Shown in pieces: positions 30,733-62,685 of a stretch of 64,000 bases of DNA. The stretch's first letter is position 1. Each line of letters opens with the position of its first letter. The translations under genes were made by a program, and so were the position numbers. This DNA is from Patescibacteria group bacterium (GTDB taxonomy: Bacteria; Patescibacteriota; Patescibacteriia; SBBC01; CAIJZX01). The notes beneath the pieces were generated by a model that saw nothing but the letters and a program-made list of their open reading frames with translations, made no database searches and was not told the origin of the DNA. The stretch covers positions 14,374 to 78,373 of the forward strand of contig JBBTRH010000012.1 of the NCBI GenBank assembly GCA_038065275.1, given 5' to 3'.

Positions 30733-30796
30733 ATTGTCAATTTACTATCCCTTACAGTAACCCGCGACACTACCAGATAATTCGATTTTTGTCAAC
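30733..30796 (-). promoter_or_regulatory. conserved promoter/leader motif copy 2: -35 TTGACA (30790-30795), 17-nt spacer, -10 TAGTGT (30767-30772); the -35 overlaps the terminal repeat of MITE copy B
   Basis: aligns with 28031-28093 over ~60 bp. Confidence 0.6.
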
Positions 30797-30903: not shown

Positions 30904-31775
30904 CCACCGCCTTTTTCCCACCCGCCGTGTCCGTCCGTCTTCAATTGTACATCACCCCGCTCATCCGTGCGCCAGATAGTCAAACCCGCTTGCTTCAGCC
31001 GCAACAGCGCCGTCGGATGCGGATGATAATATCGGTTTCCCGCGCCGACGGAGATCACCGCCCAGGTCGCATTCACCGCCTGCAACCAGCGCACGCTGGA
31101 AGAAAATCGCGAGCCGTGGTGACCGACTTTCAGCAGGCCGGCCCGGACATCGGCGCCGCCATCAAGAATCCGGTCCTCAATGTCGCTCGACGCGTCGCCC
31201 ATCAGCATGGCCGAACTGCCGCCGCAGGAGAGCTTCAGAACAACTGAGGCGTCATTGACTCCCCCGCCTTCCGCCGCATTGTCACCGACGATATTTTTCT
31301 TGGTCAGGTCCTGGGCTGGCCAGAGAACATCGAACGTGGCCGCGCCAACAACGTATCGCTGACCGGCCAGTGCGTTGGTAACCGGAACATGTTGTTCGCC
31401 GAGCAAGGCGTGCCAAGTTTCGTACGCCCGTTGCTGGTACGGCAGGCTCGTGGCGAGCACGCGGCGGACCGTAAACCGCTCGGCCACCGCCACCAGTCCA
31501 TTCACATGATCGGCGTGCGGGTGAGTCAGCACCATCAATTCGATATCGCGGTCGCCGGCCGGCAACGCTTGGCTTAATCGATCGACCACGGTGTCATCCG
31601 GACCGCCATCGATTAGAATATCCTGATGGTCGCTCGTTTGGATGAGAATGGCATCACCTTGGCCGACATCAAGCGCCGTGAACGTGCATGCCTGATATAC
31701 CCCCCGGGGGTATATCCAAACCACCGCCAGCAGAACAGCGGCGGCACTAAGTAGAAGAAGTTTTTTGCGCATCAC
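30900..31775 (-). CDS. MBL-fold metallo-hydrolase matching the ComEC/Rec2 C-terminal lactamase domain, as a separate ORF with its own N-terminal TM/signal helix
   Basis: LDVGQGDAILIQT.., LTHPHADHVNGL, HHGS motifs; overlaps the upstream ComEC membrane ORF by 29 nt in a different frame. Confidence 0.7.
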   Translation of the reverse strand: MMRKKLLLLSAAAVLLAVVWIYPRGVYQACTFTALDVGQGDAILIQTSDHQDILIDGGPDDTVVDRLSQALPAGDRDIELMVLTHPHADHVNGLVAVAERFTVRRVLATSLPYQQRAYETWHALLGEQHVPVTNALAGQRYVVGAATFDVLWPAQDLTKKNIVGDNAAEGGGVNDASVVLKLSCGGSSAMLMGDASSDIEDRILDGGADVRAGLLKVGHHGSRFSSSVRWLQAVNATWAVISVGAGNRYYHPHPTALLRLKQAGLTIWRTDERGDVQLKTDGHGGWEKGGG

Positions 31776-33186
31776 GAGTAATTAATTTAATTGCCAGGGC
31801 GACAAAGACCAGACCGCTAAAAATTGTTACGGCCGGGGCCAAGTAGATCAAGGCGTTCGGTAGCGACGCGCCGGTAGTAATCAACCACACAATTAACCGT
31901 AACAAGGCGTCACTCACCGGTACAGTCACCGGCGCCAGCCAGGGAATCCACAGCCCCAGCAAACTGACCGCCCCGACGGCCATTGACAGCGGAATCAACG
32001 GCAGGACCAGGGTGTTCACCAGGGGCGCCACTAGCGACAATCGCCCGAACCGCCACAGCAACAACGGTTCGGTCATGACGATGGCGGCCAGGGTGGTGGC
32101 GAGATTATCGCGCAACCCGAACTTGGCGGATACCCACGGCAAAACCGCCGTCATTGGTTTCGACAGCGCCACCAACCCGACCGTTGCCAGGAACGATAAC
32201 TGAAAACCAAGGTCGTGCCAGACGATCAACGGATTCACGATCGCCATCAATAGCGCCGTGTAGGCCAACAATCGCCCGACGTTGATCGGGCGGCCGATGA
32301 ACAGCCCGACTTGCACCACTACGGCCATGATCGCCGCTCGCACGACTGACGCCGAAGCGCCGCTCATGACCACAAACGCAATCAGTAATCCCAGCGCCGG
32401 TATCCACGCCCAGCGCCGACCAATTAACTTAACTAACCAATTGACTGCCATCGCCATGATGATCGTCACATTAAATCCCGACAATGCCACAATATGCGTT
32501 GTCCCCGTTGCCTGAAATGCCGTGTTCAGCCGATCCGGCATGCCGTCCGTGTTGCCGACCAGGATGCCGTTGAGCAACGACGCTTGCGGTTCGTTGTACT
32601 GCTGGCGGACGTAGGTCAGCAGGCGTTCCTGCCACCGCCCGAGCGTCGCCCGCCATGATACGAGATGGCGCCGGACAACATCAACCGTCAAAGTGGCGCA
32701 ACGGGCATGAACGCCGTGCGACCACCGCCGGCGTTGCGATATCTCGGTCAGCGCCGTTATTTCACACGTCACCCGAACTTGCGTTCCCGCGCGAATGGTC
32801 GGGATCGCCGGAACTGACACAAGAATTTTCCCAACCATAGGCTTGCCGCTGGCAGTGACATCAGTCAGTTCAAACCGTTGCGCCGTCCCGTCAATCGTCG
32901 ACGGCAGAACCACTTCGCCCTCGGCCGTCATCGTTTGTCCGACGTAGCGGCTGATGTCATTCGCCGCGACGGTCAAAGCGCCGCCCATCCGCCAAACACC
33001 GAGCATCGCGCCAAGCAACGCTACGCTCACCCACCGCCCGCGGCGGACGCTCAACAGCGCCACGGCGATACTGCCCGCCGCCACAGTCAGCGGTGTCGGC
33101 GCGCGCCAAACCTCACCGGCGGCTAATCCGGCGCAAAATGAAGTTAAGAATACAAACAACAGCGGCCTGGACATAATGTTGGCCAC
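31747..33186 (-). CDS. comEC: ComEC/Rec2-like competence membrane channel (DUF4131 plus Competence domains) lacking the fused lactamase domain
   Basis: N-terminal TM then OB-like region, then ~8 TM helices with ComEC-typical spacing. Confidence 0.65.
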   Translation of the reverse strand: MANIMSRPLLFVFLTSFCAGLAAGEVWRAPTPLTVAAGSIAVALLSVRRGRWVSVALLGAMLGVWRMGGALTVAANDISRYVGQTMTAEGEVVLPSTIDGTAQRFELTDVTASGKPMVGKILVSVPAIPTIRAGTQVRVTCEITALTEISQRRRWSHGVHARCATLTVDVVRRHLVSWRATLGRWQERLLTYVRQQYNEPQASLLNGILVGNTDGMPDRLNTAFQATGTTHIVALSGFNVTIIMAMAVNWLVKLIGRRWAWIPALGLLIAFVVMSGASASVVRAAIMAVVVQVGLFIGRPINVGRLLAYTALLMAIVNPLIVWHDLGFQLSFLATVGLVALSKPMTAVLPWVSAKFGLRDNLATTLAAIVMTEPLLLWRFGRLSLVAPLVNTLVLPLIPLSMAVGAVSLLGLWIPWLAPVTVPVSDALLRLIVWLITTGASLPNALIYLAPAVTIFSGLVFVALAIKLITRDAQKTSST

Positions 33187-46405: not shown

Positions 46406-47584
46406 CTAAAGCATCTTCTTCCGGATGAAAGCCGGAATTTCCAGGTCGTCCTCAGGTGCTGGTTTAGGAGCCGGACGCGATACCGGCGGGGTGAAGGTCG
46501 ACGCCTGAGCGGATGGGGCCGATGACACCGCCGGTTTTGAGCGTTCGACCGGCAAACTCGTATCAAATGACGCGCTACCGGCCGCCATGACCTTTTTCGG
46601 CGCCCGGGCGCCGCCGCCTTTGCCGAAGCCGGTGGCGATGACCGTCACCTTGAGCTCGTCTTTCAGCGCTTCGTCGATCACCGCACCGAAGATGATTTTG
46701 GCGTTCTGATCGGCTGATTGGGTGATGACGCGGGCCGCTTCGTTGACTTCGTACATGCTCATGTTCTGGCCGCCGGTGATGGTAAATAGGATGCCGCGCG
46801 CGCCGTCGATCGGCACTTCCAGCAACGGCGAGTCGATGGCCGCCTTGGCGGCGTCGACCGCGCGGGTTTCACCGGTGGCGCGGCCAATGCCCATCAGCGC
46901 CGTCCCCTGGTCTTTCATGATTGCCTTGACATCGGCGAAGTCGACGTTAATCAGGCCGGGAACGGTGATCAGTTCGGCGATACCCTGGATCCCCTGGCGC
47001 AACACGTCATCCACCACCTGGAACGATTCCAACAACGAGGTCTTCTTGTCGATGATCTGCAACAGACGGTCGTTGGGAATAGAGATGATGGTGTCGACTT
47101 GGCCGGCTAGCTCGTTATAGCCGTGGTCGGCGATCGCCCGACGTTGGACGCCCTCGAAGGAGAAGGGTTTGGTCACCACCGCCACCGTCAGCGCGCCGAG
47201 GTCTTTAGCGATCTCCGCAATCAACGGCGCCGCGCCGGTGCCGGTGCCGCCGCCCAGACCGCAGGTGATGAAGACCATGTCCGAATCTTTCAGCAGTTCG
47301 CGGATTTCGTCCTGGTCCTCTTCCGCCGCTTTCCGGCCGATGTCCGGATCCATGCCCGCCCCCAGACCGCGGGTGGTGGTCTTGCCGATATGAAGCTTGA
47401 CCGGCGCCACATTGTGGTGCAGGGCTTGAGCGTCGGTGTTGACCGCCACAAACTCAATCCCCCGGATTTTCTGTTGCATCATCCGGTTGATGGCCGAACC
47501 GCCGGATCCGCCGATGCCAAGAACTTTGATCTTGGCGAACGTTTCGATGTCGGGTTTCACTTCCATGGGCGATCGGGGAGGCAT
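46406..47584 (-). CDS. ftsZ: cell division GTPase FtsZ
   Basis: GGGTGTGAAPLIAEIAKDLGALTVAVVTKPFSFEG tubulin signature. Confidence 0.95.
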   Translation of the reverse strand: MPPRSPMEVKPDIETFAKIKVLGIGGSGGSAINRMMQQKIRGIEFVAVNTDAQALHHNVAPVKLHIGKTTTRGLGAGMDPDIGRKAAEEDQDEIRELLKDSDMVFITCGLGGGTGTGAAPLIAEIAKDLGALTVAVVTKPFSFEGVQRRAIADHGYNELAGQVDTIISIPNDRLLQIIDKKTSLLESFQVVDDVLRQGIQGIAELITVPGLINVDFADVKAIMKDQGTALMGIGRATGETRAVDAAKAAIDSPLLEVPIDGARGILFTITGGQNMSMYEVNEAARVITQSADQNAKIIFGAVIDEALKDELKVTVIATGFGKGGGARAPKKVMAAGSASFDTSLPVERSKPAVSSAPSAQASTFTPPVSRPAPKPAPEDDLEIPAFIRKKML

Positions 47585-47669
47585 GGCGTTAGTCTATCAA
47601 AGTTATGGCTAAAGGGGCAATGGCGGCCGGAACCGAGGGTGAACACCTCAAGTGTTCAGTCGGGATACG

Positions 47670-48935
47670 TTACGGCAACAGGCCTTTGAACCAGCGGCGT
47701 ATCCCGTCAACCGTGTCATTGACCGAGCCGAGGGCCGGGAGTTTACTGAACAGTCCGCGGTCGGCATTGGCGTCGGCGGCCCAGCTGGCTAAACCCAGCG
47801 CCGTGGTAAAGGCCGGGTCTTGGATTTTATCGATCGCGCTGGTGTAGCCCTGGGGAAAACCGACGCTGACCGGCAACCGAAAGTCGCGCTTGCCGATATC
47901 GACGAAGCCGGGAAGTTTGGCTCCCCCGCCGGTCAGGACGACGCCGGCCGGGAGCAACCCCGAGCGATCAATGGACTGGAGTTCACGGTCAACCATCTTG
48001 TCGATTTCTTCCGCTCGAGCTTCGATGATTTCAGCGATCTGACGCCGCGAAATCGCCAGGTCGTCACCGCCCAGGTCGTGCAGGTTAATCTCGTCGTGTT
48101 TGCCGACTTCGTTCGGGTTGGCCGTGCCCGCTTCAAGTTTCACCTTTTCGGCCAGGTCAATGGAAATGCGCAGGCCGATGGCGATGTCGTTGGTGATGTG
48201 ACTGCCGCCAATCGGCAAGATCTTGGTGTGCAGGACGTCGCCCTCTTCGAAGACCATCAGGCTGGTGGTGCTGGCGCCGACGTTCAGAACGGCCACGCCC
48301 AGGTCTTTCTGCCGTTTTGAAGTACAGGCTAGCGATGAGGCCAGCACCGCTAGGACCAGATCGTCAATGCTGACGCCGGTCCGGTAGATCGCTTTCTGCA
48401 AATTCTTAATTTGCGCCGTTTGACCCTCGATAATCTGGGCGTCAACTTCGAGGCGCATGGCCGACATGCCTACCGGATCTTTCACCCCGTGCTGGTTGTC
48501 AACCGTGTATGATCGCGGGATGACGTGGAGAATTTCGTAGTTCGGCGGCGCGGCCACCGCTTGCGCCGCTTCGATCACGCGGTCGACGTCATTCGGCTTA
48601 ATCTCGCCGTCCGCCTTGGCGACGGCCACGATGCCGTGGCTCTCGATGGAAGTGATGTGCGTGCCGTTGATGGCCACCGTGGCGTGTTCGGCCGGGACGC
48701 CGGTCATCCGCTCGGCTTTCTCCAGGGTCGCCGAAATCGACGACACCGCATCTTCGATGCTGGTGATCGTGCCCTTGGAAATGCCGTCCGCCGATCCTTC
48801 GGCCGCGCCGAGGATGTGCAATCCGTCCACTCCCGCTTGGCGCTGAGCCACGACCACGCGGATGGCCGAGGAGCCGACGTCGAGTCCGGTGTAGAGTTCA
48901 ATTTTTGCCATCGCCGCGACCACAATTTTGGTCAA
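47670..48935 (-). CDS. ftsA: cell division protein FtsA
   Basis: actin-fold motifs LDVGSSAIRVVVA, VLNVGASTTSLMVF, VVLTGGGAKLPG. Confidence 0.9.
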   Translation of the reverse strand: MTKIVVAAMAKIELYTGLDVGSSAIRVVVAQRQAGVDGLHILGAAEGSADGISKGTITSIEDAVSSISATLEKAERMTGVPAEHATVAINGTHITSIESHGIVAVAKADGEIKPNDVDRVIEAAQAVAAPPNYEILHVIPRSYTVDNQHGVKDPVGMSAMRLEVDAQIIEGQTAQIKNLQKAIYRTGVSIDDLVLAVLASSLACTSKRQKDLGVAVLNVGASTTSLMVFEEGDVLHTKILPIGGSHITNDIAIGLRISIDLAEKVKLEAGTANPNEVGKHDEINLHDLGGDDLAISRRQIAEIIEARAEEIDKMVDRELQSIDRSGLLPAGVVLTGGGAKLPGFVDIGKRDFRLPVSVGFPQGYTSAIDKIQDPAFTTALGLASWAADANADRGLFSKLPALGSVNDTVDGIRRWFKGLLP

Positions 48936-49022
48936 GCATACGTACCGGCAGTATATACCAACTTCCAGGAAAGGCGAAGGCTGTGGATAACATCAACTGT
49001 ACACAAAAAGTGTTCAATCCCT

Positions 49023-49403
49023 TCATCCTGGCCTGAACCAGTCTGCCAGGTACGGCCAGAACACCAGCCCGCCGACGCCGATCGCCGCCAGGGCGGCGAT
49101 GACCACGGTCGCGGCCATGATGTCTTTAATGATATGGACGTAAGGGTGCACGCGCGGCTCAAGCAGGTCGGCGAAGCGCTCGACGATGGTGTTGACCAGT
49201 TCCAGAATGAGCATGGAAGCGATGACTAGGATGATCATCGCCGCATCCGAGCGGGAGATGCGAAGGACGACGGCCAAGCCCGCCACTGCCAGGGCGATGA
49301 CGGTGTGGATGCGAAAGTTATTCTCGGTGGTAAAAGCGTGCGCCAAACCATGCATGGCGTGGCGGGTGCTCCGGGCGAAGCGCGGAAAGCTGATGGTAGT
49401 CAT
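49023..49403 (-). CDS. dgkA: diacylglycerol/undecaprenol kinase DgkA family
   Basis: 3-TM DgkA fold, ..ELVNTIVERFADLLEPRVHPYVHIIKD..; ATGA overlap with the ybeY stop. Confidence 0.75.
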   Translation of the reverse strand: MTTISFPRFARSTRHAMHGLAHAFTTENNFRIHTVIALAVAGLAVVLRISRSDAAMIILVIASMLILELVNTIVERFADLLEPRVHPYVHIIKDIMAATVVIAALAAIGVGGLVFWPYLADWFRPG

Positions 49404-49837
49404 GTCAATCGTTGTTCGTAGCGTTCCCAGCGACGCTGGTCGGCGGCCGTGGCGTGGTCGAAACCGAGCAGATGAATCAGGCCGTGTTCCAAGAGCATTC
49501 GCAGTCGACCGCGGTACGGCGTTCCGCTGTGCTGAGCTTCCCGCCGGATGACGGCCGGACACAGGAGTACTTCACCAGCCAGCGGATCGGCCGATCGGGC
49601 CCGCGGGTCGTGAGCGTAATCAAAGGTCAGGACGTTGGTCGCCCGGCGGCGGCGGCGATACCGTCGATTCAGTCGCTGGCTGATGGACGGCGTGATAGCA
49701 TTGATGACGATCCGGCCCGGGAGCCGCAGGCGTCGCCGGGCGCGGAGCGTCCAGCGGCGCAAGGTATCTCGGCTGACTCCCGCCGGAGTCAACAGCATGA
49801 TGATCGTGGCGGAACGGCGACTAGCTAGTCGCGACAA
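49400..49837 (-). CDS. ybeY: rRNA maturation endoribonuclease YbeY
   Basis: HGLIHLLGFDH zinc-binding motif, NVLTFDY. Confidence 0.8.
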   Translation of the reverse strand: MSRLASRRSATIIMLLTPAGVSRDTLRRWTLRARRRLRLPGRIVINAITPSISQRLNRRYRRRRRATNVLTFDYAHDPRARSADPLAGEVLLCPAVIRREAQHSGTPYRGRLRMLLEHGLIHLLGFDHATAADQRRWERYEQRLT

Positions 49838-50969
49838 GCTTAAAGCTCTTCATCATCATCTCGAAAGTCGTCCAGTAGTTGAGCTGGCTGAGCCCGGTGG
49901 CGGTGTAAGTCAGGCCGTATATTTTGGTTCCCTTGAATAGGTAGACCGATGAACCGTCAGGACTAACCAGGCCTTCGAGGCCATTGACGGCGACGGATTT
50001 AGTCAGGCTGAGTTGATCCGTCGGGTAATTAGCCTGATACCACTGGGACGGCGTCTGGCTGGCGGCGTTGTCGTAGACGCGGACCTGGAAAAATTCACCG
50101 GTTTGCGTAGTCGGCGTGACTACTAACAGACCGCTTGATTCGTTGGTCGTCCAGCTGGTCGGGACTAATAGGCTGAAAGCTTTAGTCGCGTTTTCCACGC
50201 GCTTCACCAATCCCGATCCTTCCAGTTGACCGACGCCTCTGGGGTTGTATAGATTAGCCAGTTCACCGATGACCGTCCCGTCCGGACGGATTTGCTTCCC
50301 GTCGATGAACGTATCGCCGTCGCTGTCGGCGTTCGCGACATCGGTGCCATACACCGCTTCCTCGGTATTGGTCAATCCGTCGCTGTCGGCGTCGGCACTC
50401 GACGGCAACGGGCCGGTGGCGATCGCGGTGTTGGTGTTCGCGGCGGTGTTCGTATTGCTCGCCGCATTCGTATTGGCGGCATTAATGTTCTGGTTGGCGT
50501 TGGCGGCGCTGTTGACGTTAGCGGCGGTATTCACGTTTTCGTTCGCGTTTCCGGCGGAGCCGGACCCGGCTCCGCCGGGTGCATTGACATTGGCGTTGTC
50601 ATTAACCGCGCTATTCGTCACCGCGGTATTGTTATTGACCGGCGCGACATTCGTGTTGCCGGTATTGGCCGTGTTCCCGTTCGTCTTCACCACCCGGTTG
50701 AAGATAAATAGCCCGGCCACGCCCAGTCCCGCTACGACCACTACTACGACCAGAATGATGATCAGTTTCTTGGTCGTATGCGATCCCGGCGGACCGCCCG
50801 GCGTGGAACCGGCGCTCCGAAAACGCTCGGGCATGGTGTGCACCGGCGGCTGCGGCGCGACGAAGGGCGGTGGTACCGTCGGGCCTTGCGAACTCGACAT
50901 GCCCGGCGCCGGCATGACCGGATTTAACGGATTCATCGGCGGCGTTTGGGGGGTGGTGTTTTCAAACAT
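49821..50969 (-). CDS. membrane-anchored surface protein with N/T/A-rich low-complexity linker and thrombospondin-type-3-like Ca-binding repeats (DADSDG..DSDGD)
   Basis: Pro-rich N-terminus, TM LIIILVVVVVVAGLGVAGLFIF, ~80-aa NTANTGNTNVAPVNNN.. linker, globular C-terminal domain. Confidence 0.5.
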   Translation of the reverse strand: MFENTTPQTPPMNPLNPVMPAPGMSSSQGPTVPPPFVAPQPPVHTMPERFRSAGSTPGGPPGSHTTKKLIIILVVVVVVAGLGVAGLFIFNRVVKTNGNTANTGNTNVAPVNNNTAVTNSAVNDNANVNAPGGAGSGSAGNANENVNTAANVNSAANANQNINAANTNAASNTNTAANTNTAIATGPLPSSADADSDGLTNTEEAVYGTDVANADSDGDTFIDGKQIRPDGTVIGELANLYNPRGVGQLEGSGLVKRVENATKAFSLLVPTSWTTNESSGLLVVTPTTQTGEFFQVRVYDNAASQTPSQWYQANYPTDQLSLTKSVAVNGLEGLVSPDGSSVYLFKGTKIYGLTYTATGLSQLNYWTTFEMMMKSFKLVATS

Positions 50970-51010
50970 AGGCGGGTGGATTGGTTGATAATGACTGCGG
51001 GCGGAAAAAA

Positions 51011-51352
51011 TTATTTGGTGGAATTAGTATTTTTGAGTTGATCGATGGCCTGGCGCAAGTCTTGCTGAGTCGGCGGGCGATAGGCCGGCGGGAGCGTGGT
51101 CGGCGTGTTGGTGACGGTTGACCGTTGGAAAGTCGGGCGGTCGTAATTCGCGGCTGAAGCGGGAGCGTTCGTTGCTGGCGTTGCGCCCGGGGCGGGGCGG
51201 TTGGCCGGCGTCCGGCGCGGGATAATGGCCGTGATTACCGCGGTCGCGCCGAGCAGGGCGGCTAGTCCTACCAGTATAGCGAGTTTCCGGTTACGCGCCA
51301 ACCAGGGGGTCGGTTCGTCGGCGGGGAGCGCTGGCAGTTGATCGTCCGGCAT
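51011..51352 (-). CDS. small membrane-anchored Pro/Thr-rich protein (113 aa)
   Basis: TM LAILVGLAALLGATAVITAII; 3 nt downstream of the giant gene. Confidence 0.4.
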   Translation of the reverse strand: MPDDQLPALPADEPTPWLARNRKLAILVGLAALLGATAVITAIIPRRTPANRPAPGATPATNAPASAANYDRPTFQRSTVTNTPTTLPPAYRPPTQQDLRQAIDQLKNTNSTK

Positions 51353-51355
51353 AGA

Positions 51356-54300
51356 CTAGGGACCGACGCGGAGCGTATAATTGAAACAGTCGCAACTATT
51401 GGGCGCGGTACAGATGTTGCTGGGCCGCGAGCTGGGAACGAAACTTCCCGGACCGGTGTATTCCATGGTGGTGTACAGGTCGACGCCGTTCCCCTGGGCG
51501 CGGTAGCCATAGAGATGAGAATCCGGCGGATTCGGGGGAATGGGGCAGGTAAACGTCTTGGTCGATTCCGCCCAGCAAGTCGCCGCTTCGTACGGCGCCT
51601 GGCACTCGGCGCTGAAGGTATTGGTCGGGTCGAGCGGCAGTGTTTTGCCCAGCTCGGCGCCGAGCGTCGCCTGCCAGGACGGCCACTTCGAAGTAGAGAA
51701 GCCGGGCAGGTACGAACCGCTAGCCAGGGCCGGGTAGGTACCGTTCTTTGTTTGGTAGACGTCTAACAGCAACTTCAACGAGGTCAGATCCTGACGGCGT
51801 TTGGTGTCGCGGATGACCTGGTCTTTAACGTCGGCGTTCGGGAAGTTAGTGTTGAAGGCGATGGCGGACAGCATCTGATCGGCGATGTTGACCGTCTCCG
51901 GACTGGCGTTATTCGAGTTGTAGTCAAAGACGAACATCAGTCCGCGCATCACCGCGCCGTCATAATCAGTTACGCCGACGTAGGTGGTGGTGCCCGATTT
52001 GACTGCCGGATATCCGGCTACAGTTGTTGACGAAGCGCCGGTATCGAGCGGGAAGCGCTTAGTAAACCAGTCGCTGGGCGATAAGAATTCGTCGTTCTTG
52101 AAGATCAGCAACCCGATTGTATCGCGGCTAGTCTGCGACTCCTTGAAGAAAAAACTTTTTAGGCGCGTCGGATCGGTGGTATTGACGCCCTCGATTGATC
52201 CGAGCGTGTCGGGCGCCGCTGAGGTTGCTGATCCGGTGTAGCTGAAATCCGGCAATGGCGTCGCGCCGTTATCGCGGCAGTAGAACATATCAAAATTGAA
52301 ATTCTGGCAACCATTAGCAGTCAGATCGCAATTAGTCGAAGCGTCGGTAAACTGCCATGGACTGACGCAGAACTTGACGCGGACCCGGCTCTGGCCGTAA
52401 TACTCGCGGCCGGCGGTGTTATTCAGCGTATCCTTTGTCACTTTCGCCTTGGCTTTAATCATGGTGGTGCCGTTGGCCCGAGCCGTGACGGCGGCCAGCG
52501 AAGGGTTGGCAACCGCCGGCGGCGTCATGGCGACCAACGCGATCGTGCTCGTCTCGGACGACCAGTCCCAGGCCCACTCGTATTTACCGGTCACCGGCAT
52601 AATCGGCGCCGCTGACCCGGCCGGATATGCTTCAGCTTTGAAATCGCTATGGACCTCGCCGAGAGCGGTAAAGATGTCATCGGTCGGCTCGACCGCCACC
52701 GTATTGATGGCGCAGATGTTCTGGCCGGTATTGAATGTCAGCGGCGTGCCGGTCACGTCGGCCAGGACGCCGTTCTGGCCGCGAATGCTGGTTGGGGCCG
52801 CCGGAATTTTCGTCAGCGTCAAGTCATCGCACCACACTTTCGCTTTCGGATTGGCGAAGCAGTTGACATGGAGAACGGCGGCCGGATTGGCCGACTTGGT
52901 CACGATGGCGTCGATCTTCTTCCAGCCGTTTGAATTGCCGGTGGACAGCCCCGGCGCATCGTTCGACAGGTCATATCCGCAATTATTGAAGTTCGGATTC
53001 ATGCATTGGGTAATCAGCCCGGATTGCACGCCGTCAGGTTGTTCGACTTTTATCCAGCCGGTGAGACGGTAGCGGCTGCCGACCGGTTCGGCCGGAGCGA
53101 TGTCTTGCGCGGCAAACGCCTGACCGGCGGTGCAGGTCGAACAGTCAACCAGCACGGACGAACCAGTATGTCCCGGGGGCAGATCGGTCGACTTCTTCGC
53201 CCGGGCCGCGTCCCAACCGACCGGCTGGGTATCCGACGACCAGGTTTCGAAATCAGGATCCTGCAAGCCGGAGACCGCTTGTTCGACGAAGGTGTCGAGA
53301 ATGAGCGACTGCGGCCGGTTGGCGGTGAGCAGTCCGGGCTGGTAGACGATCGTGCCCGATACCGCATCATTCCGCACCGCCATGGCGCCGTCCACCGGCG
53401 AGTAGCCGTTGAGGTAGTGCACGGTCGTCCGATTCACGGTTGACGGGTCGAGAGGCTGGTTGAATTCAACCTCGGCGGTGGTATTGCGGCAGACGTTGGT
53501 TGCTCCCGCCAGCGGAGCGGTGCTTTTCACCGTCGGCCGCGGACCACAGCACCCCAGCCCATTAGCGCCGGGATAGCCGCATCCCTGACCGGCTGGACAA
53601 GCCGCATCATTGCCGAACTGGCACGAAGTGGCACAGGCCGACGCGGCGGTCACGATGTACGGCAAGGAATTGCTTGATTGAATCCCCTTCACTACTCGCA
53701 CTTCATTCGGAGCGATGGCTGCCGCGTCTGGGACACGAATGGCGATTTTCTGATCAGTCCAGGCCGGCTGTGGGTCTGGGTAGAAGGAAACCGGCAGCGC
53801 CGTCAAGCTACCGATTTCGGTGAAGGTGACTTGATCGCCGACGGCCTTGGTCGTGAAAGTGTGACCGGTCACTGTCGCCGGATCATCCCGCTGACCGGTG
53901 GCGGGAAATATTTTGCATATCCCCGGTTCAACTGCGTTATTGTTAACCGTAAAACCAGCCGCGAAAGTAGCCGTCGCCTCGTCATTGCGGACAACTTTCA
54001 CCGGCACCTTGCCCGGACTTAGGCCGGCCGGCACTTCCCGCACGATTCGTTCGTTCCACCAGGAATTTCCGCATTGCGCTTGGTCGGGCACCAGGCCATT
54101 CAACGGTGGTTGAGCGTCGAAAACGACGTTGCTTTTGGCTGGATCATAGGCGCCGAACCAACACCCCTTGATGGTCGTCCAGTTGCCGACCGGGCCGTTG
54201 TCTTTGTCGAGCGCGTTAATAACCGGCGTGCAGTTCCCATTGACGCAAGCGGACGCGCCGCAGGACTCTCCCAGGGCATTCTTTGCGCACTGGCTGGAGA

Positions 54301-57300
54301 CGGTGCAAGCGGTTGGACTGTAGGTCAGTGTAAATTTCGGTGACATATATGATTGGGCCGAGACGGTCACGTCGGTGATGCCCTTAGACGCATCCGGAAC
54401 ACCCGTCTTAGCACCGCTGGCCGGTGGAGACAATGTTTTATCATCCGTGGTATCGCTGAGCGGCGGGTTGACGATGCCCACGTCACCGTTAGTCGAATTC
54501 CAGTTAAACTTGAGGCCGGTATGGGTCAACGTATGGCAAGCGTTATCCATCGGCCACGCTTTCAAGCTGATCGGCGAATAATTAGGGTCATTGACGGTCC
54601 TTAAACCGTTCGGGTTGAGGCCGACGTTATCGATTACACACAGCTCAGCCCCGGCCTTGGTGGTGAACTGCCAGGTATACGGCGCCGCCATCTGCCGGCC
54701 CGATCCTGGCGTAAAGCCGGGCGGCACGGCGGCCGCTCTGATGCCGGTGGTCAGACGGACCTGGTACATAGTATCGGGATCCAAATTAACCGGTACCGCC
54801 CGCGTGCCGGGGGTGATGGACAACAGCGCGCCGCTCGTTTCAACTACCGCGGCGATGGGACTGAGGTTGCAGGTCCCCGCCGGGCAGGCGAATAAACTGA
54901 CCGTCGAATTATAGACGACCGTCGTCGGATCGAGCGGGATATTGAAACGCACCGTCACCTGGGTGTTCAAACAAGCCGCCGTATCGTTCTTGTATGGATT
55001 CGGGCTGGGGTACGCGCCGGCCGCGATGTTACAAGTACTATCCTCCACCACGGCCGGAACGCCGGTCTCTCCGCCGGGGGTGGGGCTTGGCTTTTCGACG
55101 TCGAATGGCAGGGGGTTGCTCTCGTCACCGTCCTTATTGACCACGCGAACTTGAGTTCGATAAGGATTCCGGGCGGTAAGCGGAACTGTGATGCCGGCGA
55201 TCGTATCGGGGTTTCCTTGAGTCCAGGCGCCGCTTGACCATGGCGAATCGTTATCGGTGGCGATACTCGCTTGGCCCGTCTTGGTTCCGAAGTTATCCCC
55301 GCTGGCCGAGAATTGCGATCCCGGGATGCCATGGTTCGGATCGAGTGAGTAGAGGCACGGTCGAGTGCCGGCTAATCCGTCGTCGAGCCGGAACTGGCTG
55401 GCCACGCTGGGTGGCGTTCTTAACGGACCAATCGGGCTGGGATAACTAACCGTGACCTGATAGTTGTAAGTCTGGTTAGGGGCAAGCGCGCCCGGATCAC
55501 TGGCGTTTAGTTTATTGACGATTGAAGTATTCTGCCAATTTTTTATTTCGGCGTCGCTCTGCACTTTCGGGCCGAGTCTCAGTTCATCGCCAGTTTCCGG
55601 CCGCCCATCCGAGGGGTTCTCAGTCGGCTTTTCAAAATAATTACCCTGCACCGAAACGCAGGCTCCGTTCGCGTCTTGACCCGGGTCGACGCGGGAAATG
55701 TATGGCGCTTGGTAACACTGGTCGGCCGGCTTGACGGTAAAGTGCCACGGCGGCGTGCCGGGCGGCGGGGTGAAACCGGGGACGGCATCGCCGTAGACCA
55801 GCGTCTCCCCGCTTTGGTTCACCACCCGGTCAGATTTCAAGCCGATGGAGTACTGGTGGTCAACCGGCAGGCCGGCCGTGGTCGGATCGAAAGCCAGATG
55901 TTTACAGTATGGATTAGGATCGAGCGTAGCGCTGGCCGGCTGATCGGTAAAACCGAAGGTGCGAATGACGACCGGGTTGCCGGCGGTTTGGTCAAAAACT
56001 AACGCCTTGGTGTTGTAAGAATCCGCTTGACCGAGTTCGCAGGTCGCGCCTTTGGTGATATCCCACATCGATGTTTTGAACTGCGCGAAAACTTCGCTTG
56101 TCGGGCAGGCGGCCGGAAATTCATTGGCCGGATAGACGTAGTCCACGCCGGGGGTGACGTCGTTCGTCTCGAATACCCACTGGTACCTATCCGCCGCGGT
56201 GCCGCACAGATCACGAAAATTCTCCACGATCACCTGGTACCAAGTAAACGGCTCGAACCATTGGTTATTCTTTAATTGCAGCCAGGCGCCGGTGCCGTCG
56301 CCGTTGACGCGCAGGTCGAAATTATTCGGATCGAGTTGTGCCCCGCTGCATTCGCCGCCGCCGCAGGTCCCGCGGTCCGGATTGTCCGGGACGCCGGTGA
56401 TTTTATATACGCGGAAGTTAGCCGTGGTGGCGGAGACCGGATCAAGACCGCGGGAAAAGTTGATACCGAGGATGGCCGAGCGGGGCACGCTCCGATCGGG
56501 TTTTAACAGCGGTTTAGTCAGGTAGTCCGATGATGGAGCGGTGCTGCGCACCTGCAACGGCTGGCCGGAGTTGAGGTCGACGCCGGTGGTGAAAGTATAG
56601 AGAATTTTACCGGGCACCGAGGCATCGTCGCAGTGCGGGATGGCGCCGCCGATATCCGGCGATGAACGGCAGTACGACAGGACGCGGTCACGGACGTCGC
56701 GGATGGCCCGACTGTTCGATTCCTTGGGGACGCTGATGCGGTAGGTAGTGGTCGGTTCGAAGTAGCGGTTGTCGGCCGGCGTATCGCTGAAGGACAAGTG
56801 GTAGAAGGTCAGGGTGTTGTTGATGGCCAGCCACTCCGCTTTCGGTGCCGCCGCCGTGCCAGCCGTGGTCGCGCCGGGCGTGTACGCTTGGCTGTCAATC
56901 GGCCGCGGGTTCGGGCTGATGACGCTGGTACAGTCCGGATCAACGCACTTCTGGATTTGCAACTCGCCCGAGGTGACCGCCAAGTAGATCGGGTCGTTCG
57001 GCAAGTCGTCGACCTTGGTCTGGAGATCCGTGTTGAAAGCGAACGACACGGCGCTCAATCGCGGCACGTTTTTCCAGCTGTCCGGCGGCGGCGTACAGGT
57101 GTTGACGGCGGTGATGTCGAACGTTGAGGTTTGACCCGGAGGACAGTCGTCGATGTTAACGCAACCGCCGCCCGGCCCGCCGCCGCCGGAATCGGTCGTG
57201 ACGTTGGCAAACGTCTTAGCTACGAAGAACACGATCGCCCAGGCCAGGAGGATAATCACCAGGCCGATGGCCGCTTGGAGGATGATCTGTTTGGCCTTCT

Positions 57301-57586
57301 CGATACGCGCCTCATTGCCGCCCGAAGTCATCCAGACGATCCCGCCGTAAATCATGTACGACACCGCCGCCAAGGTCAGAATGCCGAGCGCCCAGCGGAT
57401 GATGTTCAGCACCACCTGCTTCAGGTCGGCGTTACCGAGACCGACCTGGCCGCCGATGGATTCAACGCTAAACGACGTCGGCGTAGCCGCCTGGGAGGTT
57501 GAACCAGATACCAACAACGATCCGCCTATAACTAGGATGGCGGCGAGGATGATGGTGCGTTGTTTCAGCATGGTCGAACGACGCAT
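51356..57586 (-). CDS. giant (2076 aa) Cys-rich extracellular protein with N-terminal signal peptide and TrbC/VirB2-like pilin module (two hydrophobic helices around an MTSGGN loop)
   Basis: N-terminus LNIIRWALGILTLAAVSYMIYGGIVWMTSGGNEARIEKAKQIILQAAIGLVIILLAWAIVFFV matches the conjugative-pilin/T4SS pilin pattern; remainder Gly/Thr/Pro/Cys-rich, beta-rich. Confidence 0.7.
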   Translation of the reverse strand: MRRSTMLKQRTIILAAILVIGGSLLVSGSTSQAATPTSFSVESIGGQVGLGNADLKQVVLNIIRWALGILTLAAVSYMIYGGIVWMTSGGNEARIEKAKQIILQAAIGLVIILLAWAIVFFVAKTFANVTTDSGGGGPGGGCVNIDDCPPGQTSTFDITAVNTCTPPPDSWKNVPRLSAVSFAFNTDLQTKVDDLPNDPIYLAVTSGELQIQKCVDPDCTSVISPNPRPIDSQAYTPGATTAGTAAAPKAEWLAINNTLTFYHLSFSDTPADNRYFEPTTTYRISVPKESNSRAIRDVRDRVLSYCRSSPDIGGAIPHCDDASVPGKILYTFTTGVDLNSGQPLQVRSTAPSSDYLTKPLLKPDRSVPRSAILGINFSRGLDPVSATTANFRVYKITGVPDNPDRGTCGGGECSGAQLDPNNFDLRVNGDGTGAWLQLKNNQWFEPFTWYQVIVENFRDLCGTAADRYQWVFETNDVTPGVDYVYPANEFPAACPTSEVFAQFKTSMWDITKGATCELGQADSYNTKALVFDQTAGNPVVIRTFGFTDQPASATLDPNPYCKHLAFDPTTAGLPVDHQYSIGLKSDRVVNQSGETLVYGDAVPGFTPPPGTPPWHFTVKPADQCYQAPYISRVDPGQDANGACVSVQGNYFEKPTENPSDGRPETGDELRLGPKVQSDAEIKNWQNTSIVNKLNASDPGALAPNQTYNYQVTVSYPSPIGPLRTPPSVASQFRLDDGLAGTRPCLYSLDPNHGIPGSQFSASGDNFGTKTGQASIATDNDSPWSSGAWTQGNPDTIAGITVPLTARNPYRTQVRVVNKDGDESNPLPFDVEKPSPTPGGETGVPAVVEDSTCNIAAGAYPSPNPYKNDTAACLNTQVTVRFNIPLDPTTVVYNSTVSLFACPAGTCNLSPIAAVVETSGALLSITPGTRAVPVNLDPDTMYQVRLTTGIRAAAVPPGFTPGSGRQMAAPYTWQFTTKAGAELCVIDNVGLNPNGLRTVNDPNYSPISLKAWPMDNACHTLTHTGLKFNWNSTNGDVGIVNPPLSDTTDDKTLSPPASGAKTGVPDASKGITDVTVSAQSYMSPKFTLTYSPTACTVSSQCAKNALGESCGASACVNGNCTPVINALDKDNGPVGNWTTIKGCWFGAYDPAKSNVVFDAQPPLNGLVPDQAQCGNSWWNERIVREVPAGLSPGKVPVKVVRNDEATATFAAGFTVNNNAVEPGICKIFPATGQRDDPATVTGHTFTTKAVGDQVTFTEIGSLTALPVSFYPDPQPAWTDQKIAIRVPDAAAIAPNEVRVVKGIQSSNSLPYIVTAASACATSCQFGNDAACPAGQGCGYPGANGLGCCGPRPTVKSTAPLAGATNVCRNTTAEVEFNQPLDPSTVNRTTVHYLNGYSPVDGAMAVRNDAVSGTIVYQPGLLTANRPQSLILDTFVEQAVSGLQDPDFETWSSDTQPVGWDAARAKKSTDLPPGHTGSSVLVDCSTCTAGQAFAAQDIAPAEPVGSRYRLTGWIKVEQPDGVQSGLITQCMNPNFNNCGYDLSNDAPGLSTGNSNGWKKIDAIVTKSANPAAVLHVNCFANPKAKVWCDDLTLTKIPAAPTSIRGQNGVLADVTGTPLTFNTGQNICAINTVAVEPTDDIFTALGEVHSDFKAEAYPAGSAAPIMPVTGKYEWAWDWSSETSTIALVAMTPPAVANPSLAAVTARANGTTMIKAKAKVTKDTLNNTAGREYYGQSRVRVKFCVSPWQFTDASTNCDLTANGCQNFNFDMFYCRDNGATPLPDFSYTGSATSAAPDTLGSIEGVNTTDPTRLKSFFFKESQTSRDTIGLLIFKNDEFLSPSDWFTKRFPLDTGASSTTVAGYPAVKSGTTTYVGVTDYDGAVMRGLMFVFDYNSNNASPETVNIADQMLSAIAFNTNFPNADVKDQVIRDTKRRQDLTSLKLLLDVYQTKNGTYPALASGSYLPGFSTSKWPSWQATLGAELGKTLPLDPTNTFSAECQAPYEAATCWAESTKTFTCPIPPNPPDSHLYGYRAQGNGVDLYTTMEYTGPGSFVPSSRPSNICTAPNSCDCFNYTLRVGP

Positions 57587-57625
57587 CGAGAAGCGGGTTG
57601 TAAGATTAAAGTTTAAAGCGCTTGA

Positions 57626-58069
57626 TTATTTAAGCAATTGTTTGACCGCGGCCGCGACGCGGTTGCCGTCGGCTTGGCCTTTGATCTTGGCCATCACGGC
57701 CGACATCACGCGGCCGAAATCTTTTGGCGTCGGTTTAAGTTCGGCCACGGCGGCGCCGACGGCCATTGCGATCTCCTCGTCGCTTATCTGCGTCGGCAAG
57801 TAAGAGCTGATGGCCGTCAGTTCGGCCTCTTCAGCCGCCGCCAGCTCGGGCCGATTCCCCTGCCGGTACATGGCGATTGATTCTTTGCGTTTTTTCGCTT
57901 CTTTCATCAGCACCGTCGTCGCCTCCGCGTCGGTCAATTCATGTTTGCGTAAATCAATTTCCGCGTTCTTAATCGCCGCCTTGACCAAGCGCAAGACGTC
58001 AACCCGCGCCTGGTCATGAGCTTTAAAAGCGGTCAGGTAGTCCTGTTCAATCTGCTGATGGATCAGCAT
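57626..58069 (-). CDS. yqeY: GatB/YqeY-domain protein
   Basis: LTAFKAHDQARVDVLRLVKAAIKNAEID..KDFGRVMSAVMAKIKGQADG pattern. Confidence 0.85.
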   Translation of the reverse strand: MLIHQQIEQDYLTAFKAHDQARVDVLRLVKAAIKNAEIDLRKHELTDAEATTVLMKEAKKRKESIAMYRQGNRPELAAAEEAELTAISSYLPTQISDEEIAMAVGAAVAELKPTPKDFGRVMSAVMAKIKGQADGNRVAAAVKQLLK

Positions 58070-58075
58070 GGTGTC

Positions 58076-58354
58076 TTAGAGTGTTGAGGGAATGCGCGGC
58101 AACGGTTTGCGGCGCGGTCCGCGCTTCTTCAGGTCGTACTCTTCGAGTTTGCCTTGGCGGCGCAGAAGTTCGCGTTGTTCGCGGATGGCCTGGCGGCGCA
58201 GGGCGTCTTCGCGGACGGCCCGTTTATTCTTCGGATTCTCGTAAAAACGCCGTTTTTTAGCGCGGATTAGGACGCCGCTTTGCTGGACACGCTTGGTGAA
58301 CCGCCGGACGAGGCTCTCCGACGATTCATTCTCCCGTTTCTTGACTTCAATCAT
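58076..58354 (-). CDS. rpsU: 30S ribosomal protein S21 with basic C-terminal extension
   Basis: MIEVKKRENESSESLVRRFTKRVQQSGVLIRAKKRRFYE matches S21; ATG 58354 preceded by AAGGAGGTG. Confidence 0.8.
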   Translation of the reverse strand: MIEVKKRENESSESLVRRFTKRVQQSGVLIRAKKRRFYENPKNKRAVREDALRRQAIREQRELLRRQGKLEEYDLKKRGPRRKPLPRIPSTL

Positions 58355-58775
58355 GGCGTCACACCTCCTTTCAGTAGTGTCGGTGCGGACGAGGAAAAGA
58401 CAGGAAACATACCCCGAGACTGTACCAACTTTTCGATGGTCTGTCAAACTTGGACGTCGGCGCGCCAGAAGCGAAGAATGTTATACCCCGCCCCTAAGCA
58501 AGCGGCCCAAGCGGCTGGCTGTGAAACATTGGGGGTCTAGTTCCTACTCCACAGCCAATGCTCATTCAGCGCCTCTTGCCCTATCTTGTGCGTATCGCCG
58601 TGTTTCACTAAACCTACGTATGACTGCACCGTTTTGTCTGTAGTATGTTCGCGAACCCACCGCATCACTCTCCGCCTCGTCGCCGTACGCGAGATACGGC
58701 GGGTTGGAAAATGAACCCGACCGGGAAAATCGACGCCGGAATAAGCTAAAAGTTCCTTGATATATTCTGGTCACC

Positions 58776-58806
58776 TTGACATAGCCGCCTTCCTTCTATA
58801 CATTGA
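58776..58806 (+). promoter_or_regulatory. sigma70-like promoter TTGACA-17-TACATT upstream of the HUH transposase gene
   Basis: ccTTGACAtagccgccttccttctaTACATTgatg. Confidence 0.4.
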
Positions 58807-58834
58807 TGTCCATTCGGTGGCTAGCAGGAACTTC

Positions 58835-59410
58835 ATGACCCAACGCGCCATCGACGGGGAGTATATCTATTTCGTGACCACTAACGTCCAGGATCGGCGG
58901 TGGTTTTTCGTTACACCAGAAAAGGCAACGCAACTAGGACAAACAATCCGGACGTGTTGCCGGATGAAGAAGTTTGAGCTCTTAGCCTACTGCATCTTAC
59001 CGAATCACATTCATCTGTTGGTCAGGAAGCTTCCGGCTGACGAAGGCTTGAGAGGCGCACCAGCGGCACAACGCACGCTGGGGAGCGTGCGTTGTGAAAC
59101 TGAAGATGACGCTTTTCTCTTCTCACATCGCCGGCTCCCCAGCCGGCGATCGCTGGAGAAGCGCCCGACGCTGTCCCACTTGATGCATTCGATCAAGAGT
59201 GCCTTCTCTCAACATCTTCACCATGGAAAGTTCTGGCAACACCGCTCCAACTTCCGGATTATCGAAACCGAGGAGTACTTGTCTAACGTAGTCGAGTACA
59301 TCCAGTACAATTATCAGAAAATGGATCTTCCTGAACACTACGGAGAAACGCCGTTTGTCTTTGTTGATCAAGCCGCGATTGATCGTGCTTTTGGATTCTC
59401 GTTGTCCTAA
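58835..59410 (+). CDS. IS200/IS605-type HUH (Y1) transposase-like protein; REP-associated tyrosine transposase (RAYT)-like
   Basis: YIYFVTTNVQDRRWFF (Y1_Tnp N-terminal motif) and HUH motif LPNHIHLLV; the only plus-strand gene in a 20-kb minus-strand block. Confidence 0.6.
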   Translation: MTQRAIDGEYIYFVTTNVQDRRWFFVTPEKATQLGQTIRTCCRMKKFELLAYCILPNHIHLLVRKLPADEGLRGAPAAQRTLGSVRCETEDDAFLFSHRRLPSRRSLEKRPTLSHLMHSIKSAFSQHLHHGKFWQHRSNFRIIETEEYLSNVVEYIQYNYQKMDLPEHYGETPFVFVDQAAIDRAFGFSLS

Positions 59411-61989: not shown

Positions 61990-62345
61990 GTTTCTTGGCG
62001 GCCTAACTCCGCTGCACCATCTATCCACTGGTGGTCGCACCCCGCAGAACACTCACTTTGTTCGTGTCTACGGGGCAGGCCTGGGCTCGAACCAGGGACC
62101 TTACGGATGTGACGGCGCGCTCCCCGGCCCGCTTCGCCTGCGGTTAAAATTAGTAAATAGTTTCTGGTGGGGATGAGAGGATTCGGACCTCTGACCTTTC
62201 CGACCCCGCTGGTGGTCGCACCTGGGCTCGAACCAGGGACCTTACGGATGTGAACCGTACGCTCTGACCAACTGAGTCCCGACGTTCCGTGCGACGGAAG
62301 TCGGGATCCCGACTCTCGCTTAGCGAGACGTCGGGACTACTGTCA
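61990..62345 (-). other. three tandem tRNA-like modules ending ..ACCA (T-arm GGTTCGAGCCC/GGTCCGAATCC plus acceptor 3' strand), one with a TTCACAT anticodon-like loop; none folds into a canonical cloverleaf
   Basis: minus strand: ..GUACGG-UUCACAU-CCGUA-AGGUC-CCUGG-UUCGAGC-CCAGG-GUGCGACCACCA; mini GGGGUCGGAAAGGUCAGAGGUCCGAAUCCUCUCAUCCCCACCA; third copy has a 40-nt hairpin between T-arm and 3' acceptor. Confidence 0.45.
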
Positions 62346-62580
62346 ATAATGAGTTTAATTACTTTTCGACTCTTTTTCGTTTTAAGGGCCCGTTCTCTTT
62401 TCCGAGCCTCCGACAACGTTGGATACCGTTCTACTCGCACCAGCTTCCAGGGTCGATAGGGCTTCGTGGAAAAACTCTTTCCAGTGTTATGCTCGCGTAG
62501 CCTCTTTCGTACATTACCGGTCGTACCAATGTAGTAGCGTCCATTCTTCTCACTCTCTAGGAAATATACGTGCCACATTA
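62150..62580 (-). CDS. GIY-YIG nuclease-domain protein (~85-aa domain; C-terminal extension overlaps the tRNA-like modules and may not be real)
   Basis: MWHVYFLESEKNGRYYIGTTGNVRKRLREHN...EARKRERALK is a canonical GIY-YIG motif; no Shine-Dalgarno seen; stop position uncertain. Confidence 0.5.
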
Positions 62581-62608
62581 TACAGGAGGGTTTACATTTT
62601 AGCCTTAT

Positions 62609-62685
62609 TGGTGGCCACTGCTGGATTCGGACCAGCGACCTCACCGATGTGAACGGTGCGCTCTAACCGACTGAGCTAAGTGGCC
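62609..62685 (-). tRNA. tRNA-Val (anticodon CAC) with encoded CCA
   Basis: GGCCACT-TA-GCTCAGTCGGTTAGAGC-G-CACCG-TTCACAT-CGGTG-AGGTC-GCTGG-TCCGAAT-CCAGC-AGTGGCC-A-CCA; all stems are Watson-Crick paired. Confidence 0.85.

Follow-up and report, generated by a model that had tools for sequence, protein, structure and literature searches.

Patescibacteria are presumed to live in attachment to other cells, and outside the Saccharibacteria little is known of the machinery of that contact. Conjugative propilins of the VirB2/TrbC type insert into the membrane with both ends outside, whilst in modular type IV pilins, such as PilB and PilC of Streptococcus sanguinis, a vWA or lectin module is grafted onto the pilin, and their incorporation into the filament has been proven. 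The small Patescibacteria pilins of Pfam family PF18895 (T4SS_pilin) are VirB2-like, lie near virB4 in 1135 of 1948 Patescibacteria assemblies and occur in arrays (PMC12102498). These arrays were reported to be essential in Ca. Southlakia epibionticum, and a pilus has been proposed, not observed (PMC12102498; PMC12857230). Genes of type IV secretion systems (T4SSs) do occur in class ABY1 according to the literature; the words 'giant' and 'Ig-like' do not occur in the text of the survey PMC12102498, which reports no fusion of a pilin. Here we analysed a window of 64,000 nucleotides (nt) from an uncultivated, ultra-small Patescibacteria group bacterium (assembly GCA_038065275.1, contig JBBTRH010000012.1, positions 14,374 to 78,373 of the forward strand), which encodes a surface protein of 2076 amino acids (aa), hereafter the giant. 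Hidden Markov model (HMM) matches and architecture indicate that its N-terminus belongs to the VirB2-related PF18895 family, and the giant is best explained as the Kerfeldbacteria-type representative of a large family of giant surface proteins that ABY1-type Patescibacteria inherit vertically. There is, in our judgement, a roughly even chance that it is a core membrane-tethered protein for contact with a host or substrate, in which the pilin module serves as anchor or assembly handle.

The pilin module and its free relatives

The gene and the regions of its product are as follows:

51356..57586 (-), giant gene, an open reading frame (ORF) with an ATG start; 2076 aa, pI 4.9
57488..57586 (-), Sec-type signal peptide, aa 1-33; hydrophobic at 7-31, with a small-x-small site ahead of the conserved mature N-terminus
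57197..57487 (-), VirB2-like pilin module (PF18895), aa 34-130; tail SFSVESIGGQVGLGNADLK, first transmembrane helix (TM1), polar/basic loop TSGGNEARIEKAKQ, second transmembrane helix (TM2)
52790..57196 (-), predicted extracellular stalk, aa 131-1599; Gly-rich linker, then Cys-rich, beta-rich domains; Pfam Big_5 and TIG
52775..53314 (-), variable domain, aa 1425-1604; gap fraction 0.30-0.34; tentatively a CBM4/9-like carbohydrate-binding jelly roll
52367..52714 (-), basal Ig-like domain of the head, aa ~1625-1740, from the AlphaFold2 model and Foldseek
51863..52201 (-), PsbP/Mog1/DcrB-like alpha/beta domain, aa ~1796-1908
51359..51835 (-), type IV pilin/pseudopilin-like domain, aa ~1918-2076; long helix RDTKRRQDLTSLKLLLDVYQTKNGTYP, then a beta-sheet; no hydrophobic N-terminal helix

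The original prediction, made from the letters of the window, had described three ORFs here, of 2076, 113 and 382 aa, and each was present at its expected position in the six-frame ORF list. The protein was not, as had been supposed, of megadalton scale, its computed mass being 220.5 kDa. The translation begins MRRSTMLKQRTIILAAILVIGGSLLVSGSTSQA followed directly by ATPTSFSVESIGGQVGLGNADLKQVVLNIIRWALGILTLAAVSYMIYGGIVWMTSGGNEARIEKAKQIILQAAIGLVIILLAWAIVFFVAKT, and a hydropathy scan of the whole protein detected just three hydrophobic segments, at aa 7-31 (the signal peptide, predicted to be cleaved after S-Q-A at A33), ~57-86 (TM1) and ~97-130 (TM2). The layout is accordingly that of a VirB2-like pilin, with a signal peptide and then two hydrophobic helices joined by the short polar/basic loop TSGGNEARIEKAKQ; the N-terminal motif quoted in the prediction was recovered within aa 78-124 (MIYGGIVWMTSGGNEARIEKAKQIILQAAIGLVIILLAWAIVFFVAK). 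The small size of PF18895 pilins (about 100-180 aa, the hairpin alone) is not shared by the giant with its 2076 aa. A hairpin with both termini outside would leave the remaining 1946 residues outside the cell.

When the whole giant was scanned, PF18895 was matched at 32.3 bits against a gathering cutoff of 26.6 (aa 55-120, model positions 5-69 of 71), and the isolated module scored 39.7 bits. The same family was matched by all 29 orthologous N-terminal modules when scanned individually (best 4.8e-14). All 29 likewise matched NCBIfam NF045849, the 'pilin-like conjugal transfer protein' of a Mycoplasma integrative and conjugative element (ICE; best 1.4e-12), for which the giant itself scored 23 bits, under that model's cutoff of 40. 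PF04956 (TrbC/VirB2) was matched by 9 of the 29 modules (best E 9.5e-6), but not by the giant itself. Across 35 aligned proteins the pilin module was the best-conserved part of the giant, with 74-77% mean identity at aa 41-120. Placement of the N-terminus in the VirB2/TrbC-related pilin superfamily, as first predicted, was therefore upheld by the PF18895 score above cutoff, by the 29 orthologous modules and by an end-to-end match to free pilins described below. The matches that a profile of the N-terminus did return from the PDB were rejected as spurious, being 'Pizza' repeat proteins whose scores were summed from six stretches of ~3 bits.

The T4SS_pilin match could instead reflect hydrophobic composition or an over-named Pfam family, the module then being a generic two-helix membrane anchor with no real link to conjugative pilins. 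Such an anchor would fit the lack of a PF04956 match in the giant itself, the failure to find a solved VirB2 by sequence and the absence of T4SS genes beside either the giant gene or its closest free pilins, and the fusion of PF18895 to PG_binding_1 (see below) is what a reusable anchor might show. The match nonetheless spans 65 of the 71 model positions at a score above the curated cutoff, some orthologous modules reach PF04956 and all reach the Mycoplasma ICE model, and the conserved polar motifs W-x-T-x-x-G and K-A-K are not a composition effect. Elsewhere in Patescibacteria, moreover, PF18895 genes adjoin virB4 in the 1135 assemblies cited above (PMC12102498). We consider a generic anchor improbable.

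A profile search with the module retrieved 2753 proteins, the best 120 of which were all 106-177 aa long and carried PF18895, some of them also PF04956, at 36-70% identity to the giant's module (BLASTP). Several of these 120 lie on contigs of <2 kb or are marked partial, such that not all represent complete genes; in its source record one is called 'type IV secretory pathway VirB2 component (pilin)'. Four complete free pilins (118-127 aa, from two related genomes) were 51-67% identical over the full module length, sharing with the giant the tail TFSVESVGxQIGLGxADLK, the two helices with their loop and the stretch that follows TM2. Since the free pilins end at that point, the giant can be read as a pilin plus 1946 residues. 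No second pilin ORF was found in the window with an HMM of the pilin module.

One free pilin (P0077) and one giant orthologue (P0023) were encoded on a single 822-kb contig, with 65% identity between them, against 67-82% among the giants in the alignment; concerted evolution of the pilin and giant of one genome was thus unsupported. Two further 'small pilins' (P0073 and P0074), which were 83-87% identical to an Uhrbacteria giant and lay on contigs of 1.2-2.0 kb, are probably truncated giants and were not used as evidence of pilin-giant co-evolution.

In all four genomes examined, the free pilins closest to the module lie in another conserved locus. Its order is NTP_transferase, SBP_bac_1, a T4SS_pilin and PG_binding_1 fusion (269-418 aa), three to four pilin-domain genes (115-219 aa), DUF2079 and MptA/GT87-type glycosyltransferases. 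The related loci are cited here by our own handles, and this one was located as follows:

L013:8219-10804, free-pilin locus
L014:8465-10766, free-pilin locus
L015:8556-11340, free-pilin locus
L016:8455-10755, free-pilin locus

No VirB4 gene was detected within 10 kb of it in any of the four. A search of the rest of the genome for VirB4, VirB6 and VirD4 homologues had been proposed with the original prediction. None was found among the 37 ORFs of the window scanned with Pfam (some 18 ORFs, mostly of <400 aa, being unscanned), none near the giant in 11 distinct related loci, and none among the tabulated genes of L001-L005 and L013-L016. In this clade neither the giant nor its closest free pilins lie beside T4SS genes, which casts doubt on the view that every such pilin is part of a T4SS.

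These free pilins bear on a further explanation, by which the module co-polymerises with them into a conjugative-type filament, or caps one, and displays the ectodomain on a pilus. The module reproduces the free pilins in full and at high conservation, mature tail and loop included, and free pilins coexist with the giant in one genome. F-type pili, as solved, have both pilin termini facing outward and tolerate C-terminal fusions, which also counts in its favour. Reviews consider that the VirB2-like pilins of Patescibacteria may build pili (PMC12857230; PMC12102498), although a PF18895 filament has never been observed, and the absence of VirB4, VirB6 and VirD4 both near the giant and near the small-pilin arrays argues against assembly of this kind. 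A cargo of 207 kDa per subunit would be sterically incompatible with a tight helical pilus, unless very few subunits carried it or it were confined to the tip, and the giants group with each other over the pilin of the same genome. On balance we regard incorporation into a filament as unlikely, though not without weight.

The ectodomain and its conserved head

The 1946 residues at aa 131-2076 make up an acidic ectodomain of ~207 kDa, composed of 10% Thr, 9.6% Ala, 9% Pro and 8% Gly, also rich in Ser and with 54 Cys. Across 17 full-length orthologues 37 of the 54 Cys were invariant, and most were retained in at least 94% of the 35 aligned sequences. No wall anchor was recognisable and no further hydrophobic segment occurs past aa 130, hence none at the C-terminus; Pfam and NCBIfam gave no match for an RTX, type I secretion or LPXTG signal. 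A phmmer search of the whole giant against the PDB returned only noise.

Within the stalk, Pfam identified Big_5 (PF13205; 8.4e-17, best stretch aa 1350-1400) and TIG (3.4e-4, aa 743-828). The variable domain is missing, at aa ~1440-1600, from about a third of the 35 aligned proteins. It is tentatively taken to be a CBM4/9-like jelly roll, the assignment being tentative because PF02018 (CBM_4_9) was matched only weakly, by 4 of 14 members (best 7.7e-4) and not by the giant itself; a profile of the domain retrieved nothing significant from the PDB.

Conservation has a second peak of 59-71% at aa 1801-2000, and aa 1600-2076 are kept even in relatives of 3000-3600 aa, where this region is internal. 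AlphaFold2, supplied with a 27-sequence alignment, modelled aa 1600-2076 with a predicted local distance difference test score (pLDDT) of 87.5 and a predicted template modelling score (pTM) of 0.85, and aa 1790-2076 with pLDDT 89.8 and pTM 0.88. Foldseek related the domain at the base of this head to Ig folds, with S-layer SbsC domains 4-6 as top match (2.4e-5), a generic resemblance. The last domain, which follows the PsbP-like domain, has three invariant Cys (1995, 2004 and 2014). PF08334 (T2SSG) was weakly matched in 9 of 27 members (best 7.2e-4), and hhalign against an approximate PulG sequence gave 77.6% over the motif DL..L...L..Y...NG.YP. Foldseek of this domain against the PDB gave nothing at E<=1e-3, and aa 1918-2076 lack a prepilin leader, an N-methylation site and a hydrophobic alpha1N. 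A profile search with the pilin-like head retrieved just three fragments, with no link to genuine type IV pilins, and a profile of the head found nothing significant in the PDB.

When 1.84 billion representatives were searched exhaustively with an HMM, the head module was detected in 1717 proteins, 1326 of them at E<=1e-30, mostly of 1500-4100 aa, the shorter ones probably being fragments. The head module thus defines a family of at least 1326 clusters.

Gene order and putative partner proteins

The genes around the giant, with two small membrane proteins directly after it, were annotated as follows:

58076..58354 (-), rpsU, Pfam S21, true start 58354; upstream of the giant
57626..58069 (-), yqeY, by Pfam; directly upstream of the giant
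51011..51352 (-), 113-aa single-pass membrane protein, starting 3 nt past the giant's stop
49821..50969 (-), 382-aa single-pass membrane protein; Pro-rich cytoplasmic N-terminus, transmembrane segment (~aa 68-92), Asn-rich linker, repeats and C-terminal domain
49400..49837 (-), ybeY, by Pfam; downstream
within 49023..49562 (-), dgkA, Pfam DAGK_prokar; downstream
46406..49837 (-), ybeY-dgkA-ftsA-ftsZ block, directly downstream, with nrdR beyond

Pfam confirmed the neighbours named in the original prediction (rpsU-yqeY upstream, ybeY-dgkA downstream), and further upstream of rpsU identified HIT, HisS and signal peptidase I. From rpsU through yqeY, the giant, the 113-aa and the 382-aa proteins to ybeY, the successive gaps are 6, 39, 3, 41 and -17 nt. 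A sigma-70-like promoter site lies ahead of rpsU at 58447-58419(-), and terminator-like sites were no commoner than in shuffled sequence. Close packing, promoter-like site and terminator frequency would together fit a single putative transcription unit.

A homologue search retrieved 72 proteins, all of which carried both PF18895 and PF13205, a recurrence well beyond chance; about 30 were of similar length (1867-2181 aa) and 36-59% identical. The only names given to the homologues were 'Ig-like domain-containing protein', and their source organisms were Candidatus Kerfeldbacteria, Uhrbacteria or 'Patescibacteria group'. Of these, Kerfeldbacteria and Uhrbacteria are placed in the GTDB class ABY1. 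Synteny was compared from the gene tables of five loci and from tblastn of the flanking proteins of the window onto twelve loci, eleven of them distinct. The order lepB-hisS-(HIT)-rpsU-yqeY-giant-(small transmembrane protein)-TSP3 protein-ybeY-dgkA-ftsA-ftsZ-(nrdR) was found in eight of the nine loci flanked on both sides. L006 and L009 keep it as far as their contigs reach, with the giant between yqeY and ybeY, whilst L003 keeps the rpsU-yqeY-giant-TSP3 genes, followed by mreC and a penicillin-binding protein (PBP) gene. The giant occupies the yqeY-ybeY slot down to 24-39% identity, across Kerfeldbacteria, Uhrbacteria and other Patescibacteria.

A lineage-specific insertion, as originally proposed, is not supported in the narrow sense, given that all eight fully syntenic loci, along with L006 and L009, have the same gene between yqeY and ybeY. 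Fixation in this slot across relatives shows that the cluster is ancestral within a deep Candidate Phyla Radiation (CPR) clade, and its absence from Firmicutes makes it specific only to that clade. In the closest relatives, rpsU, ftsA and ftsZ are 83-92% identical, the giant 57-63% overall and 72-80% in its two terminal modules.

Two loci of more distant Patescibacteria, one of them an Uhrbacteria (L004:8065-19987 and L005:8153-20569), contain two tandem pilin-Big_5 genes in the slot, encoding 611-644 aa and then 3328-3522 aa. Following the conserved head module, the longer proteins additionally carry VWA, Big_7 and DUF4215 domains. Three loci on public contigs of metagenome-assembled genomes titled 'uncultured Gammaproteobacteria bacterium' (L007, L010 and L011) carry a complete Kerfeldbacteria-type locus (giant 36-42%, neighbours 70-80% identical) and are probably mislabelled.

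Such gene order also bears on whether the giant is an envelope or surface-layer scaffold, forming a structural coat or spacer of the cell envelope, co-expressed with genes for the ribosome and for division, and taking no direct part in host recognition. The deep synteny with rpsU, ybeY, dgkA, ftsA and ftsZ would suit this, as would mreC and the PBP gene in L003, the resemblance of the Ig-like domain to S-layer SbsC/SbsB domains above all others, and the free-pilin locus, which adjoins envelope glycosyltransferases and has one member with PG_binding_1. The Ig-like matches are, however, generic, Pfam detected no SLH or other lattice-forming domain in the giant, and the ectodomain evolves faster than its neighbours (57-63% against 83-92%), gaining and losing domains as exposed recognition proteins do. 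A purely structural role is, in our estimation, decidedly unlikely.

Two small anchored proteins had been predicted to follow the giant on the same strand, one with calcium-binding-type repeats, and both were borne out, each with one transmembrane segment. The 382-aa protein has two TSP3-type DxDxDG repeats at aa ~190-225 (SSADADSDGLTNTEE..NADSDGDTFIDG), and repeats of the form DxDxDG-L-T/S-D-x-EE are common to it and its counterparts, in which Pfam identifies TSP3_bac. Its conserved C-terminal domain aligned with the PsbP-like domain of the giant at 95% hhalign probability (E 3.8e-8, 88 columns), which indicates that the two are paralogous. The 113-aa protein lacks TSP3-type repeats, as do its L001 and L005 counterparts, whereas those of L002, L003 and L004 carry them. 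Relative to L002:15809-16258, L003:18967-19572 and L004:21012-21701, only the transmembrane segment and a short C-terminal motif are left in the 113-aa protein, which by this comparison is a reduced form of the TSP3-repeat protein of L002-L004.

Other features of the window were also recorded. An ORF for an IS200-like Y1 transposase (PF01797, 1.6e-8) lies at 58757-59410 (+), on the opposite strand between HIT and rpsU, a gap that holds an FHA-domain gene in L001 and no called gene in L002. The flotillin-type gene that had been expected near yqeY is ~27 kb away, within a run of four same-strand ORFs at 25438-30770 (-), which encode an SPFH/Band_7 protein (517 aa), a Big_7 Ig-like protein (592 aa) and two proteins without Pfam match (282 and 368 aa). 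A GIY-YIG nuclease ORF at 62150-62644 (-) overlaps tRNA-Val (62609-62685), with a weak tRNA-like Rfam match inside it (62213-62279, 32.4 bits), and may represent a mobile endonuclease that has inserted at a tRNA gene. Two overlapping ORFs at 30900-33186 (-) make up a split ComEC, one with DUF4131 and Competence domains (31747-33186) and one with a metallo-beta-lactamase domain (30900-31775). A transfer-messenger RNA gene at 19727-20129 (-), matched by Rfam RF00023 at 81.9 bits, was not reported by ARAGORN; an smpB-like ORF lies nearby at 17330-17776.

Proposed role and comparison with known systems

If the giant is a tethered contact protein, it would be exported by Sec and its signal peptide cleaved, whereupon the hairpin would insert with both ends outside, as in VirB2/TrbC propilins, tethering the whole ectodomain to the cytoplasmic membrane of a monoderm cell. 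Carried by the stalk through the wall or S-layer, the head would then engage a partner on a host cell or a substrate, with glycan or hydrophobic ligands suggested by the CBM-like and PsbP-like domains, and the co-encoded membrane proteins might act as calcium-dependent partners. Because its tail and loop are kept as strictly as in the free pilins, the module probably shares their insertion or assembly machinery, and it may contact free pilins in the membrane.

Three observations weigh against this proposal: a profile of the 29 modules against PDB sequences recovered no solved VirB2 or TraA chain, a core-genome place beside ftsA and ftsZ (mreC and PBP in L003) could equally mean a role in building the envelope, and the pilin module is conserved more strictly than a passive anchor needs. 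A putative attachment role for the giant is plausible. A bolder form of the filament proposal, that these are modular VirB2-type pilins and the first cargo-bearing members among conjugative pilins, seems to us unlikely. By this account the hairpin would enter a pilin polymer whose construction did not depend on a T4SS locus nearby, and a ~200-kDa arm with a PsbP-like (hydrophobic-ligand-binding) and pseudopilin-like head would capture components of the host envelope. Were it true, the giant would constitute a core, division-linked host-contact organelle of ABY1 Patescibacteria.

For the tethered contact protein that we favour, the closest comparison is with the small Patescibacteria VirB2-like pilins, which belong to the same HMM family and share the signal peptide, tail, TM1, basic loop and TM2. 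They differ in being 106-177 aa long and consisting of the hairpin alone, whereas the giant adds 1946 extracellular residues, and the giant lies in a housekeeping operon rather than beside virB4. With the TrbC/VirB2/TraA pilins of Gram-negative T4SSs (PF04956) the giant shares a hairpin propilin, a long signal peptide, a presumed N-out/C-out topology and, in some orthologues, weak HMM cross-matches; it differs in its lack of a PF04956 match and of T4SS neighbours, in coming from a monoderm organism and in that no solved pilin is reached by sequence, and cyclisation or a small mature size would be impossible for it. Unrelated to these is the donor-strand-exchange 'Pam' pilus of the CPR (bioRxiv 10.64898/2026.03.03.709456), described with no mention of VirB2 or T4SS, whose transmembrane helices are C-terminal chaperone anchors.

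Like the modular type IV pilins, the giant joins a pilin moiety to a bulky C-terminal functional module, in their case for adhesion. They belong, however, to another pilin superfamily, with a class III signal peptide, a single helix and type IV pilus machinery, and carry one or two domains against 200 kDa in the giant. The giant non-fimbrial Ig-repeat adhesins (Bap, SiiE and LapA) are likewise very large, acidic, beta-rich and Ig-like, with calcium motifs that are here found in the partner proteins. Their type I secretion or sortase anchoring and long tandem repeats contrast with the predicted Sec export of the giant, its N-terminal pilin-hairpin anchor, its conserved Cys (presumably in disulfides) and its non-identical domains. 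As regards the head, the nearest known counterparts are the type II secretion system major pseudopilins GspG/EpsG, type IV pilin heads and proteins of the PsbP/Mog1/DcrB/LpqN fold. The giant's pilin-like domain differs in that it has no prepilin leader or hydrophobic alpha1N and is placed at aa 1918-2076, and sequence identity is <=25%.

Each constituent is of a known kind, whether VirB2-like pilin, giant Ig-like surface protein, PsbP fold or pilin fold. Their combination, namely a pilin with a 200-kDa ectodomain, in >1300 clusters, fixed in the rpsU...ftsZ block and with a paralogous partner, was described in none of the papers searched or read, which likewise made no mention of giant pilin fusions or of an rpsU...ftsZ giant operon. 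The pilin module, the PsbP-like/pseudopilin-like head and the calcium-repeat partner offer targets for metaproteomics, cryo-electron tomography and binding studies. The giant would be a core-genome surface protein anchored by a complete VirB2-like pilin, and the PF18895 'pilin' fold would gain a second role, as a handle for very large ectodomains.

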